Notes: a model not told the origin generated them from the sequence alone. DNA of 63,965 bases, filler included, from Octopus bimaculoides (GCF_001194135.2; 5 parts of 5 records of this genome joined end to end with filler, not necessarily neighbours in it); one strand, 5' to 3'; positions 6,635 to 59,952 are shown, counted from the whole stretch's first letter. Numbers and translations: made by a program.

Positions 6635-6853
6635 AGAAGAGTGCACTCTTCTTTTAATTTTGACTCTATATCTTCAGGAGGAGTTACCTCAATCCTTTCT
6701 AGATAAACGAAAATGAAGTAGATTGACAAATTTATTTTTTGAACCAGTGGAAGACACGCAAGATGTCGAAATATTGTTCACGAGATAGCAAATGGCACTC
6801 TTCTTTTAATTTTGATTCTATATCTTCAGGAGGAGTTACCTCAATCCTTTCTA
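6635..6853 (+). mobile_element. Penelope-like relic: 59-bp direct repeats (6643-6701, 6795-6853) flanking a decayed hammerhead fold
   Basis: The repeats differ at 1 base; a perfect 18-bp palindrome AGAAGAGTGCACTCTTCT lies at 6635-6652; hammerhead-like fold at 6740-6780. Confidence 0.6.
6740..6780 (+). ncRNA. Decayed minimal type I hammerhead ribozyme-like motif
   Basis: TGAAC-CAGTGGA-A-GACA(CGCAAGA)TGTC-GAA-ATAT-T-GTTCA: stems I and II pair and stem III is palindromic, but the core has 2 substitutions versus CUGANGA. Confidence 0.5.
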
Positions 6854-7214
6854 TATAAATATAATAATAATAATAACTAATAATAATAATAATAATAATG
6901 ATATATAAATAATGATGTTAAATAATTATAAAAGGAATTAAAACTGGGATTTTTAACAGTTGTAACTCTGAATTGAGCGTTCCTGTTTGAAAAGCAAGAG
7001 CGAGAAGCTCTAAATATCGACAGTGAAAAGTCTCAATGTCAATTACAGATATTCAGAACTGTTTGAACGTCTAAAACATTAGTACCAGTTAACTACTGTG
7101 GCCTATATAATCGCCTGAATCTTTGACTAAAAATCCTCGTTTTGTATTTATTTACACAATCTGTTAAATATCATGTTTTAGGTATCCTAAATTACACTGT
7201 ATTCTATAGAAATA

Positions 7215-7416
7215 TATGAAGGGATGCTTTAAGGGTGTCGCGAAAAGCCTGGCTGGAGGCCCAACCTTCCGAGTTCTTTTACAGGACTTAGAAAAACTGA
7301 AGGATCGCTGAAATAAATGTATGAATTGAGAGGAGAATATTTTGAATAAAATCATAATTAACTGATCTTATATTTTCTTTTACCCAAAGCCAGAAACTTA
7401 TCTGCACCACTTCGTA
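7215..7416 (+). mobile_element. Mariner-derived MITE
   Basis: Right end AAAGCCAGAAACTTATCTGCACCACTTCGTA, partly deleted left end TATGAAGGGATGCT; the interior reads like a mariner C-terminus (LQDLEKLKDR.NKC...GEYFE*). Confidence 0.75.
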
Positions 7417-7585
7417 TACTGTTTAATTAACTTTGAAGCCGACCAATCAATTATATGCATATCAGCAACACAGCTAATGAGCTATGGATATATATATAGA
7501 AAGATAGATTGAAAGCACAATTGGAATTTTCCGTTTAACTTTGGTTCGAAAGCCTTTCCCGATTACTGATTTTTCTAATTCAGGG

Positions 7586-7640
7586 ATGGTCTTTGTGGCA
7601 AGAAGCTTGCTTCCCAACCACATGATTCCGGGTTCATATG
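7586..7640 (+). mobile_element. SINE family A head fragment
   Basis: GTGGCAAGAAGCTTGCTTCCCAACCACATGATTCCGGGTTCA matches the reverse-complemented head at 30.35 kb. Confidence 0.75.
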
Positions 7641-8377
7641 TGTGTGTGTATGTGTGTGTATTTATTTATTTATTTATTTATGTGTTTCAGCCAAGTGGCT
7701 GCGGTCATGCTGGTCATACGTATGTGTACGTATGCGCGCGCGTGTCTAACTTAAACCGCTATTTGATATTTCTTCTCAATTTTCTAATGTGTACAGCCGA
7801 TGTTTATAGACATGTACACTTTAAATATAACTGAAACACACANNNNNNNNNNNNNNNNNNNNNNNNNNNNNNNNNNNNNNNNNNNNNNNNNNNNNNNNNN
7901 NNNNNNNNNNNNNNNNNNNNNNNNNNNNNNNNNNNNNNNNNNNNNNNNNNNNNNNNNNNNNNNNNNNNNNNNNNNNNNNNNNNNNNNNNNNNNNNNNNNN
8001 NNNNNNNNNNNNNNNNNNNNNNNNNNNNNNNNNNNNNNNNNNNNNNNNNNNNNNNNNNNNNNNNNNNNNNNNNNNNNNNNNNNNNNNNNNNNNNNNNNNN
8101 NNNNNNNNNNNNNNNNNNNNNNNNNNNNNNNNNNNNNNNNNNNNNNNNNNNNNNNNNNNNNNNNNNNNNNNNNNNNNNNNNNNNNNNNNNNNNNNNNNTG
8201 TGTGTGTGTGTGTGTGTGTGTGTGTGTGTGTGTGTGTGTGTGTGTGTGTGTATGCATATATTTCGTTATTTTCCTCGATCGGGCGATCTACTGGCACAAA
8301 TCAGTCAACTTTGTTGACTAAATTTTACATGAAGCTATTGCTTTATAAGTTCCTTCAGAGTTGTCTTTCTTAGGTAC

Positions 8378-8424
8378 ATCCCATTGACAAGAGTCAATAA
8401 ACTCGAAACGGCGATGTCTGGGAT
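8378..8424 (+). ncRNA. Type I hammerhead ribozyme relic
   Basis: ATCCCA-TTGACAA-GAGT(CAATAA)ACTC-GAA-ACG(GCGA)TGT-C-TGGGAT: 6-bp stem I, 4-bp stem II, stem III with a GNRA loop, GUC triplet; core is CUGACGA with two transitions. Confidence 0.65.
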
Positions 8425-56640: not shown

Positions 56641-57567
56641 ATTATGAAGTGAAGCTGTATGGAATAATATTTTTAAAAATTTATTTTATATAGAGAAATC
56701 TTCAACAATTTGATTTGAAAGTCTGTCCATACATGGGTTAAACTAAATTGTGTTTTAAACTAAAATTGTGTTTTTAGACAATTTTTGTTTTTTTCTCATT
56801 TTCCTACACATATGCATAATATGGTTACACCAAACACCCACCTAAACAAAAATAATGACCATTAATGTAAATTCATTGAGATAGAAAAAAAGAGAAAAAA
56901 CTACATGAGAATATTTTGTAGCAAAACGCAGTTTAAAAGAAAAAAATAATGATGATTCTATAGAGAATAACATTAAAATGAACAATTCCAACGGCTCGTT
57001 TGATAACATTCGCACTCACATTTTGCTAAAAAACAAAAATAACTGTAGCAAATATGGAAATCTTACCTCACAAATGATGGCTGGATATGGACCATATAGT
57101 TGTAAAAAAAGAAAAGAAAACAACTGATCCGTAATATGTAATCAAAACGGGCACGTTTTTGCTTGAAGCTATCATACGTGTACAAGAAAAGAGGGAAGTG
57201 GCTCATTTGTGCACTTTGTAAGTGACATGGTTTTTATTTGTGTCCACAAAAGAACGTTTGTAAATAGCTCTCACCGATATGTAGAGAGAGAGAGAGAGAT
57301 CTTCCCTGGTGAATGAGTAGGATACATTGGGTACTACGCCTCATGTATAAAACTGGGAAGGATGAAGAGGCAGGCTAAGCTAATAGACCAAGTGGCTACT
57401 TATGGCTGCTACTCTCGTCTTTCTTTGCTCCATAACTGAGGCATAAGCATATGAATCTCATGACGTGTTTCGTCACTGCCGATGGTCATTTCGTCTCCCT
57501 CTTCATCTTTAAAGCCTGGCTTTTGGTTCCCTAACTCTGGCCTCATCCGATGTGCTCAATTTCCTGT

Positions 57568-57932
57568 CACACATCGGACACACATCGGGCACACATCAGG
57601 CCACACGTCGAGCACACATCCCGTCGCACATCAGGCCACACATCGGACACACATCCCGTCACACACCAGGCCACACATCCCGTCACACATCAGACCACAC
57701 ATCGGGCACACATCCCGTCACACACCAGGCCACACATCCCGTCACACATCAGGCCACACATCGGGCACACATCCCGTCNNNNNNNNNNCATCGGGCACAC
57801 ATCCCGTCACACACCAGGCCACACATCCCGTCACACATCAGGCCACACATCGGGCACACATCCCGTCACACATCAGGCCACACATCAGGCACACATCCCG
57901 TCACACACCAGGCCACACATCTTGTCACACAC
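57568..57932 (+). repeat. Minisatellite with 11-12-bp monomers in a 59-bp higher-order unit
   Basis: CACACATCGGG-CACACATCCCGT-CACACACCAGGC-CACACATCCCGT-CACACATCAGGC repeated. Confidence 0.92.
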
Positions 57933-59615
57933 GTCTTCAAAATTCTCCCCTGAGTGGTATGTAGGGTCTTACTTTATTGTCTTCGGAAGAGCAGAGATAT
58001 CACACCAAGCGCCTGCTTCTTTTCTCGATTAATTCACAATATCAAGGCATGATCCTTTGCGACGTACTTCGAGTCTTTTATTTCCTTCTCTGCACAGTCT
58101 CCTGAAAGTCTATCTCTTTTGAGTACGTCTGCATTGGCAAACACTGTTACTGTGGCTCACACTGCTGCTGCTGTTACTGTTGTTGTTTTATTTCCATGTT
58201 TGTTTTTCTTTCTTTCTTGAACGTTACTCATGTCTAATGTGTTGTTAATGCTGATGCTGAGGGCGTCACTGTTCACGTCAGAGCCTATAATCTTTTATTT
58301 CGAATGTCACTTCAATGATTTGTATTTATGGGAGACGGCGTTCCCCCCCCTCTGTGTCTGGAACGCTTTCCCACAATTGTTGGAGTCTCTGCTGTCGACA
58401 ACTCTCACAGACGCCATGTTAAAAGGAGAAAAAAAAACAACTCATCACNNNNNNNNNNNNNNNNNNNNNNNNNNNNNNNNNNNNNNNNNNNNNNNNNNNN
58501 NNNNNNNNNNNNNNNNNNNNNNNNNNNNNNNNNNNNNNNNNNNNNNNNNNNNNNNNNNNNNNNNNNNNNNNNNNNNNNNNNNNNNNNNNNNNNNNNNNNN
58601 NNNNNNNNNNNNNNNNNNNNNNNNNNNNNNNNNNNNNNNNNNNNNNNNNNNNNNNNNNNNNNNNNNNNNNNNNNNNNNNNNNNNNNNNNNNNNNNNNNNN
58701 NNNNNNNNNNNNNNNNNNNNNNNNNNNNNNNNNNNNNNNNNNNNNNNNNNNNNNNNNNNNNNNNNNNNNNNNNNNNNNNNNNNNNNNNNNNNNNNNNNNN
58801 NNNNNNNNNNNNNNNNNNNNNNNNNNNNNNNNNNNNNNNNNNNNNNNNNNNNNNNNNNNNNNNNNNNNNNNNNNNNNNNNNNNNNNNNNNNNNNNNNNNN
58901 NNNNNNNNNNNNNNNNNNNNNNNNNNNNNNNNNNNNNNNNNNNNNNNNNNNNNNNNNNNNNNNNNNNNNNNNNNNNNNNNNNNNNNNNNNNNNNNNNNNN
59001 NNNNNNNNNNNNNNNNNNNNNNNNNNNNNNNNNNNNNNNNNNNNNNNNNNNNNNNNNNNNNNNNNNNNNNNNNNNNNNNNNNNNNNNNNNNNNNNNNNNN
59101 NNNNNNNNNNNNNNNNNNNNNNNNNNNNNNNNNNNNNNNNNNNNNNNNNNNNNNNNNNNNNNNNNNNNNNNNNNNNNNNNNNNNNNNNNNNNNNNNNNNN
59201 NNNNNNNNNNNNNNNNNNNNNNNNNNNNNNNNNNNNNNNNNNNNNNNNNNNNNNNNNNNNNNNNNNNNNTATATATATATATATATGGAATATATATATA
59301 TATATATATATATACACGCACACACAAAATAGCTTCTCCCAGATGAACCGTTACAGCAACATGTGCATAGGAATATAAACACATTTCTATACAAAAACTG
59401 TGAGTAAACCTGTTAGTAAAATTTCAAATTTTTCATTTTAATTACATATACATCCATATTTATACAAAACCTCTGTATATATGCACATTGCTATTTCTTC
59501 TCGGTCTCTCGTTGATGCATCAATAATAATTATAATTATAACTACGAAAGAAACATGAACACATGTCCATCGGTGGTGTATTTGACGGATATTTGTCCTC
59601 ATCTTGTTTGTTGTT

Positions 59616-59661
59616 AACACAACGTTTCGGCTGATATACCCTCCAGCCTTCATCAGGTGTC
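59616..59661 (-). ncRNA. Minimal type I hammerhead ribozyme (intact copy)
   Basis: GACAC-CTGATGA-A-GGCTG(GAGGGTATAT)CAGCC-GAA-ACGT-T-GTGTT: 5-bp stems I and II, palindromic ACGU stem III, GUU triplet, one extra A after the core. Confidence 0.8.
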
Positions 59662-59906
59662 TTGGGGAAATTTTGAACCTGGGTTCTCATTCCTAAGGTA
59701 TTTTTTTATGTTATTATTTATTATTATTATTATTATTAAGGTCACTGCCTGGAATCGAACTCGGAATCTTGGGGTTAAGAGCGCGGGTTACTAACCTCAA
59801 GATTCCAAGTTCGATTCCAGGCAGTGACCTTAATAATAACAATAATAATAATAATAACATCAAAGAATACCTTAGGAATGAGAACCCAGGTTCAAAATTT
59901 CCCCAA

Positions 59907-59952
59907 GACACCTGATGAATGCTGGAGGGTATATCAGCCGAAACGTTGTGTT
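59907..59952 (+). ncRNA. Minimal type I hammerhead ribozyme (copy with G>T at the first stem II pair)
   Basis: GACAC-CTGATGA-A-TGCTG(GAGGGTATAT)CAGCC-GAA-ACGT-T-GTGTT. Confidence 0.7.

Follow-up and report, generated by a model that had tools for sequence, protein, structure and literature searches.

Six hammerhead-ribozyme-like motifs lie scattered through a 63,965-nucleotide window from Octopus bimaculoides (the whole stretch of DNA analyzed, five parts of assembly GCF_001194135.2 joined end to end with filler), an AT-rich, gapped sequence with 7,108 N that is rich in microsatellites and repeats. The look of its SINEs (short interspersed nuclear elements), a Mollusca-leaning Atlas match resting on 3 members and the heavy A>G signal in RNA suggest an octopus-like source. 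The motifs represent five unrelated retro-element insertions, mostly of described kinds and likely surviving as dead copies. We put at roughly two in three (0.66) the probability that these are five likely dead insertions of hammerhead retro-elements dependent on the enzymes of Penelope-like elements (PLEs), and that the insertion at 59.6-59.9 kb belongs to a head-to-head, tRNA-headed family resembling short interspersed nuclear elements (SINEs) and likely moved by PLEs. This tRNA-headed SINE, likely moved by a Penelope element, is plausibly the new part, the other four carriers being further known kinds; the general picture of scattered hammerheads and retrozymes has already been published (PMC4209133; PMC7229834; bioRxiv 10.64898/2026.07.22.740005).

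The motifs that begin at 59616 (minus strand) and 59907 are the two arms of one head-to-head palindrome, spanning 59580-59988, in which 191 of 201 aligned columns are paired and the arms differ by nine bases and one gap (Table 1). Outward from the center, each arm consists of a tRNA-like remnant with a B box, a (TAA)n stretch, about 45 nt of body, the hammerhead and a 52-nt 3′ segment. The arms overlap by a 6-bp microhomology (59773-59778), and the palindrome center has been lost together with most of both A boxes, for which reason the copy is likely not transcribed from its own promoter. It measures about 230 bp and has no open reading frame (ORF) match. The sense strand of either arm is free of TTTT runs, which is at most compatible with transcription by RNA polymerase III (Pol III), and neither poly(A), a simple-repeat end, a tail derived from a long interspersed nuclear element (LINE) nor a target duplication was seen in this copy or in the family loose ends listed. 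The hammerhead of the left arm appears intact: it has a 5-bp stem I, the core CUGAUGA followed by an additional A, a G10.1-C11.1 pair, a 6-bp stem II, the palindromic stem III ACGU and the triplet GUU, and its fold lies within 0.6 kcal/mol of the minimum free energy (MFE). The lesion in its counterpart on the right arm is private to this copy, the family base at 59920 being G in 94-96% of DNA and RNA. At 59894 both arms carry A, as against G in about 77% of the family DNA depth, consistent with one template for both arms. An assembly artefact was considered for the palindrome and rejected, as the arms differ and the family has the same joints in raw data; no listed contig spans the junction.

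Table 1. Hammerhead motifs, their carriers and associated segments in the window.
Feature	Position	Strand	C3	Predicted cut after (triplet)	Basis
Carrier 1: 152-bp unit and 65 bp of a second one (1.4 units) inside (TAA)n	6635..6859	+			Repeat comparison
Penelope-type minimal hammerhead, broken core CAGUGGA	6740..6780	+	6745	6775 (AUU)	Descriptor match
Canonical type I hammerhead, U3-A8 core	8378..8424	+	8384	8418 (GUC)	Descriptor match
Carrier 3: extended imperfect rod with the 11104 hammerhead as its cap	11041..11205	+			52 Watson-Crick pairs in 70 columns
Canonical type I hammerhead, CUGAUGA, stem III ACAUGU	11104..11146	+	11110	11140 (GUC)	Rfam HH9
Carrier 4: inverted repeat, about 42787-42847 / 42903-42963, flanking the motif	42787..42963	+			85% over 54 bp
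Decayed Penelope-type minimal hammerhead, CUGAAGA, stem III AUAU	42849..42886	+	42853	42882 (AUA)	Descriptor match
Carrier 5 left arm: head remnant with its B box at 59761, then (TAA)n, body, hammerhead and 3′ segment	59580..59778	-			
Intact Penelope-type minimal hammerhead	59616..59661	-	59656	59621 (GUU)	Passes every descriptor
Carrier 5 right arm	59773..59999	+			Family read ends
tRNA-like head remnant, B box 59808-59818	59773..59829	+			Box scan
Second minimal hammerhead copy, private G10.1 to T at 59920	59907..59952	+	59912	59947 (GUU)	Family comparison
Stuttered short repeats derived from the 3′ end of the element, right end only	59986..60021	+			TRF periods 9, 18

Public sequencing reads contain the element, in part, in 20 of 24 runs from nine studies, mainly of two organisms (A and B). 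Four runs were aligned to 59735-60140: DNA of each organism, which yielded 23,259 (A) and 31,646 (B) contigs, counts that are not copy numbers, and two RNA runs (about 6% of each), which yielded 7,653 and 5,983 reads. One run, X1, cannot be counted as independent support, since the window itself may derive from it; X19 and X20 (share 0.13) form no part of the evidence. The reads depart from the window sequence before 59773 and behind 59777. Loose ends before 59773 complete the tRNA-like head, in which the A box begins 44 nt upstream of the B box, and then continue into its reverse complement (399 and 243 RNA reads, agreement 0.78-0.79; 87 and 116 DNA contigs, agreement 0.61-0.65); because the head is first completed and then mirrored, the inversion point is the first base of the head. 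Among the joints listed, ten lead from the reversed head (59772-59777) into the element, at nine different positions from 59885 to 59986, and both there and in this copy the head-to-head partners are variably truncated at the 5′ end. The 3′ loose ends fall into two classes in all four runs, with either mixed flanks behind 59999, the commonest family 3′ end (agreement 0.42-0.58), or one fixed extension behind 59997-60015 (agreement 0.68-0.82 in RNA and 0.49-0.55 in DNA; at most 30 letters visible). Inverted truncated copies and a one-sided tail are described in PMC8557442 as PLE traits absent from LINE-type insertion. The size of this copy, its lack of an ORF match, the mixed flanks and the more than 23,000 contigs per DNA run mark the family as short, non-coding, dispersed and high-copy. 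Fixed symmetric ends and a target duplication were not found: the ends are asymmetric, truncation is variable and no duplication was seen.

The ribozyme core varies unevenly within the family. Among the core positions in the variant rows listed, N7, the only free core base, differs between subfamilies (T>A in 9% and 16%, T>C in 20% and 0.5%, in the two DNA runs), U4 is changed in 0.7% and 2.0% of DNA, and G12, a CpG site, in 8% and 14%. We read this as a core selected in source elements, whose copies then decay neutrally.

In RNA the family shows a further layer of change. At seven sites, 10-24% of RNA reads show A>G or T>C, compared with 0.07-2.0% of DNA depth, and loose ends before 59898, seen in RNA only, are rich in A>G. 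These RNA-only changes are likely A-to-I editing of duplex RNA from both strands, although RNA also exceeds DNA in some C>T and G>A changes. Between 59898 and 59977, the RNA-only A>G and T>C changes hit the base past A9, an A of stem II and the A opposite U4. A 3-base loss inside stem III at 59944 (347 of 4,185 and 302 of 3,304 RNA reads, versus less than 0.2% of DNA depth) probably stems from one or a few highly expressed copies. The read-through transcript is predicted to form a single hairpin of -331 kcal/mol, with a pairing probability for stem II of 0.0000 on both strands.

If PLEs do move this family, its cycle might begin with Pol III initiating at the head, with a transcript about 250-290 nt long. 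The 3′ half of this RNA, which resembles the pseudo-long terminal repeat (pLTR) of these elements, would be recognized in trans by the reverse transcriptase/GIY-YIG protein of a PLE and copied at a nick; at the 5′ end of the RNA the new strand could fold back or switch template, producing a second, inverted arm. The hammerhead is predicted to cut only once two RNAs pair via ACGU, a duplex of -1.7 kcal/mol by prediction. Inserted copies still contain the 52 nt that follow the cut site, so the template from which they were made would have been uncut or re-ligated; this in turn suggests that source elements likely keep the motif among the features required by the PLE machinery. Within read-through host transcripts, the arms would pair into a 200-bp duplex that would block the ribozyme and would likely be edited by ADAR. 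The hairpin of such RNA, which is predicted to lack stem II, could thereby protect host RNAs. Both the role of the hammerhead in Penelope elements and the origin of inverted and tailed insertions are stated to be open in PMC8557442.

Several observations weigh against this account. Carriers 1-4 are single copies, and the family data concern the 59.6-59.9 kb element only. No autonomous partner element was found, so that the case for PLE dependence is built on motif type and the geometry of the insertions. Neither ARAGORN nor Rfam calls the truncated head a tRNA, and its alignment to a resident tRNA-like SINE head (23668/23712) scores 34.5, no better than unrelated matches; that resident head shares the 44-nt A-B spacing and is itself tRNA-like in Rfam at 26.4 bits (E=0.31). 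Stem I has a predicted probability of 0.002 in a complete single arm. In the two RNA runs read starts and ends pile up at no position, and depth rises smoothly across 59947 with no step, which gives no sign of cutting in vivo; the test is insensitive, as the libraries look unstranded and most copies are decayed. CpG sites within the ribozyme decay at 8-18%, compared with 14-15% at one CpG outside it, and this equality implies that most genomic copies are under no selection. In addition, RNA and DNA come from different samples, and the variants discussed here are those in 40 of 109 rows, the joints and loose ends a small part of the total.

Two of the remaining motifs are, like the pair just described, of the minimal Penelope type. 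Motif 6745 (motifs are named here by start or by C3) has a 5-bp stem I, one additional base past A9, an exact G10.1-C11.1 pair, stem III AUAU and the triplet AUU. Its carrier, which combines a partial tandem, a fold-back and a microsatellite target in a manner counted in favor of PLE dependence, begins with a perfect 18-bp fold-back palindrome (6635-6652) and contains direct repeats (6643-6707 and 6795-6859) that differ at 2 of 65 bases, with (TAA)n on either side. That an insertion this young has two altered core bases suggests a source that had already degenerated. In 42853, stem I is interrupted after 2 bp and a G-U pair occupies 10.1/11.1; the inverted repeat around it may represent a 3′ stub with an inverted, truncated copy. 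Both motifs are likely decayed PLE-type ends or mini-elements, and could be truncated ends of autonomous Penelope elements.

This last possibility can be extended to the whole set, in that all carriers would be stubs of pLTRs left by truncated autonomous PLEs, and within such a pLTR the tRNA-like segment of the 59.6-59.9 kb family would ride as a passenger rather than serve as promoter. PMC4209133 interprets most solitary minimal hammerheads as truncated PLEs and reports opposite-strand pairs 100-700 bp apart; family coverage is, moreover, biased to the 3′ part and lower over the head. Such an origin is probably right for 42853 and perhaps for 6745. For the family it encounters the difficulty that among the best-supported loose ends listed, the only common sequence that continues upstream from the head is the head's reverse complement, and that the sole distinct upstream string (before 59898) consists mostly of A>G differences from the window and comes from RNA runs only. 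As an explanation of all carriers it is unlikely. The original prediction had also noted that no Penelope reverse transcriptase or GIY-YIG ORF is visible in the window, and Pfam agrees, with neither domain in 30 read-through frames or in 278 open segments (stop-free, at least 50 amino acids, from 394 of at least 42 amino acids in the remaining ranges after a low-complexity filter); sensitivity was low, in that two LINE endonuclease fragments were missed as well, and decayed ORFs could escape.

tRNA heads usually mark LINE-driven SINEs, and this insertion, as do further hairpin elements of the window, forms an almost perfect palindrome. Together with RNA that bears no cleavage signal, this would fit a family that is either a LINE-driven SINE or a foldback element akin to the miniature inverted-repeat transposable elements (MITEs), its hammerhead an inherited relic with no role. 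Yet one arm is truncated at many points, the ends are asymmetric, the tail is optional, and neither poly(A) nor a visible target duplication accompanies them. Twin-priming inversions are not known to put the 3′ end on both arms, unlike the arrangement in this family, and the subfamily variation is located at N7. Either origin, with the hammerhead as a relic, is improbable.

The two canonical motifs introduce another route. Motif 8384 combines a 6-bp stem I, prolonged imperfectly across 8350-8451, with a 4-bp stem II and 6-nt loop, a 3-bp stem III of the monomer type, closed by a GCGA loop, and the triplet GUC. Rfam gives no match for it (8345-8455), and its hammerhead fold lies 4 kcal/mol above the MFE; judged from its sequence, it looks intact and might act as a monomer. 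Its loops may resemble the loop contacts of the Schistosoma ribozyme. Motif 11110 aligns to the full Rfam Hammerhead_HH9 model with a score of 26.1 bits against a gathering threshold of 52 (E=4.5e-5, search of 91 nt), with a single mismatched pair, C.A at 10.1/11.1. It sits on a rod with a folding energy of -81 kcal/mol over 11045-11205, adjoining an assembly gap that begins at 11219. A search for RNA-level selection on three rods, as an excess of G.U over A.C, was negative (11 versus 12, p=1). Sequence and helix sizes make 8384 and 11110 likely monomers of retrozymes. For neither was a tandem array seen, with units of 150-450 bp that each hold a hammerhead: both are single copies in the window (11110 adjoining the gap), and monomers are common in published retrozyme families.

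Conceivably, the 59.6-59.9 kb family itself would spread in this manner, with tandem masters cut by paired hammerheads and circularized, and inverted dimers as by-products. A precedent is Sm-alpha, a SINE-like Pol III hammerhead repeat in tandem arrays (PMC6765202), and retrozymes, likely the route of 8384 and of 11110 beside its gap, have also been proposed to depend on PLEs; in bioRxiv 10.64898/2026.07.22.740005, which makes this proposal, 1 of 9 dimers cleaved. Tail-to-head joints are absent among the joints listed, however, and the sequence upstream of the head is a mirror image of the head, not the tail, which renders a retrozyme cycle very unlikely for this family.

Taken as a set, the six motifs (starts at 6740, 8378, 11104, 42848, 59616 on the minus strand, and 59907) all display the predicted order of helices and core, and C3 and cut sites could be assigned in each. 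The core CUGANGA, which the original prediction ascribed to all six, occurs in four (CUGAUGA in 11110, 59656 and 59912; CUGAAGA in 42853), the exceptions being 6745 (CAGUGGA, with U4 and A6 changed) and 8384 (UUGACAA, a U3-A8 variant). Likewise, the four motifs at 6740, 42848, 59616 and 59907 fit the Penelope-type minimal consensus, with 6745 failing the core test, whereas 8384 and 11110 are canonical, with a 6-bp stem I and 6-nt loop 2. Palindromic stem III is present in five of six, as ACGU and AUAU (twice each among the minimal motifs) and ACAUGU. The statement that the motifs are not copies of one element holds across carriers, of which there are five, rather than at least four, without common sequence (best cross-carrier match E=0.27), but fails for 59616 and 59907. 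Four of the six have a damaging defect: the core changes of 6745, the C.A pair of 11110, the two unbroken stem I pairs of 42853 and T for G10.1 in 59912; none is visible in 8378 and 59616. The picture of diverse tiny non-autonomous ribozyme parasites is borne out by one short, non-coding, high-copy family, that at 59.6-59.9 kb, and not on present data by the other carriers; the tRNA-like head escaped the original prediction. The estimate of about one motif per 10 kb stands for this window, where six motifs or five insertions in 56,857 called bases correspond to one per 9.5 or 11.4 kb. As PLEs make up 6.83% of the Octopus vulgaris assembly, such a density is unsurprising in such a genome.

Comparison with block-wise dinucleotide shuffles of the window (150 or 300 replicates per descriptor) favors the motifs under tight descriptors. 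An exact core with stem I of at least 4 bp, stem II of at least 3 bp and a palindromic stem III gives three matches, and 0 of 150 shuffles has any; admitting U3-A8 and a 3-bp stem III gives four, against a shuffle mean of 0.037 (11 of 300 shuffles give one, 0 of 300 reach four). Descriptors admitting 42853 or 6745, tuned after the motifs were known, find at least one match in 1 and in 3 shuffles out of 300, respectively. A single loose descriptor for all six, with the palindrome dropped, remains at the chance level, with 29 matches observed versus a mean of 25.4 and 35 of 150 shuffles reaching 29; further loose matches at 4118, 4984, 5378, 41764, 44387, 3062, 32365, 37908 and 47561 were dropped as being within chance. 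Folding energy does not set the motifs apart from shuffles (z -1.6 to +1.0), and Rfam reports no hammerhead among the 150 of 254 whole-window matches listed, or on the separate stretches 59500-60100, 59766-59840 and 8345-8455. That the weaker motifs 6745, 42853 and 8384 are chance look-alikes, as the loose descriptor, the unexceptional folding and the after-the-fact descriptors might suggest, is most improbable given features that the loose descriptor did not require (the G10.1 pair, a palindrome or U3-A8 covariation, an extended stem I or PLE-type repeats) and the 0, 1 and 3 of 300 shuffles that match the descriptors for 8384, 42853 and 6745.

Other features of the window touch less directly on these elements. 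Two 3′ LINE endonuclease-like fragments (5650-5960 and 6091-6480) are each followed by (CAA)n/(TAA)n, with an Atlas feature score of 0.97 to eukaryote clusters, and presumably resemble the restriction-like endonuclease end of R4/Dong-type LINEs; neither has a Pfam match, and the LINE-like fragment had no homolog among 22 longer-protein candidates and nothing significant in PDB. A decayed mariner transposase lies at 51836-52483 on the minus strand (HTH_48, E=1.3e-11; Transposase_1, E=1.3e-12; in different frames). Long hairpin elements, MITE-like or nested, occur at 3863-4208, 11995-12123, 31751-32405 and 43747-44069 with no convincing hammerhead, and 43809-44067 has 19 A.C versus 5 G.U on the plus strand (p=0.007, one of ten hairpins tested), possibly a G.U bias on the minus strand. 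Related tRNA-headed SINE copies, none with a hammerhead, are found at 23663-23977, 25800-25941, 28269-28414, 10068-10151 and 38712-38944, and two further SINE-like families recur in many copies; octopus SINEs presumably include those named OK and OR1. A minisatellite of about 86 bp (12559-13130; 5-6 copies, about 70% identity) and a degenerate 12/35/59-bp tandem array open in three plus-strand frames (57562-57931) complete the repeats. The 100-bp N spacers at 11219-11318, 35918-36017, 50389-50488 and 62759-62858 are assembly artefacts, the one at 11219 with a central short palindromic linker.

Tentatively, and at somewhat less than even odds, the 59.6-59.9 kb family can be regarded as an undescribed class of SINE, in which a tRNA-derived Pol III head is joined to the end of a Penelope pLTR whose hammerhead is active only as a dimer, and which Penelope enzymes have mobilized to many thousands of copies in two related animals. 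If so, head-to-head insertions would give two divergent Pol III transcripts able to pair as an active ribozyme dimer, while in read-through host RNAs the arms would pair with each other, which would silence the ribozyme and provide substrate for A-to-I editing. With a natural template of 250 nt, Penelope retrotransposition and the function of its hammerhead could be tested directly, and a family with promoter, conserved core, inversions and tail would define the minimal cis-sequence and be convenient to use in assays. It would also extend the partners of SINEs from LINEs to Penelope and mark a large source of edited double-stranded RNA. The literature covered, mostly without subscription papers, contains no tRNA-headed PLE-mobilized SINE and no octopus hammerhead, though the family may be annotated in Repbase or Dfam. 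Octopus is absent from the supplement file of PMC4209133 that was searched, three short family motifs are absent from the supplement of PMC8557442, and scans of sequence collections with the family DNA gave no match beyond one chance 22-mer (L001).

Comparisons can be made with several known systems, as the accessible portions of the cited papers describe them. Octopus tRNA-derived SINEs such as OR2 (cited in PMC4758252 and PMC10886601) share the tRNA-like head, and the head of the resident SINE the 44-nt A-B spacing, but such SINEs are taken to use LINE tails, and the octopus repeat papers searched mention no hammerhead in their accessible text. Schistosoma Sm-alpha and Sj-alpha (PMC6765202) are likewise short non-coding retroposons in which a Pol III promoter precedes a hammerhead; Sm-alpha differs in its tandem repeats and canonical ribozyme, the octopus family having the minimal dimer type with PLE-style inversions and a tail. 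Non-autonomous Chlamys PLEs such as MRC1 (PMC8557442) are also short, non-coding and PLE-moved and adopt pLTR-type structures, though with head-to-tail copies and no tRNA head, in a clade mostly without hammerheads. The metazoan non-LTR (long terminal repeat) retrozymes (PMC7229834; bioRxiv 10.64898/2026.07.22.740005) match 8384 and 11110 in helix sizes, self-paired rods, non-coding and AT-rich character and proposed PLE dependence, whereas no tandem array was seen here and the 59.6-59.9 kb family is head-to-head where retrozymes are head-to-tail.

The closest counterparts are the hammerheads surveyed by Cervera and De la Pena (2014; PMC4209133). There, the canonical metazoan type I ribozyme has a helix I of 6 bp, a helix II of 4 bp and tertiary contacts, and a natural U3-A8 core variant is reported; the minimal PLE type has a short helix I, an additional base past A9, G10.1-C11.1 and a palindromic helix III. 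The octopus carriers depart from these in having no PLE ORF beside the motifs and, in one case, a tRNA-like head. They agree with the minimal PLE hammerheads in the CUGANGA core with its additional base, the G10.1-C11.1 pair and the short helix I, and likewise in the loop-less palindromic helix III, the NUU and NUA triplets, the solitary copies and the opposite-strand pairs 100-700 bp apart.

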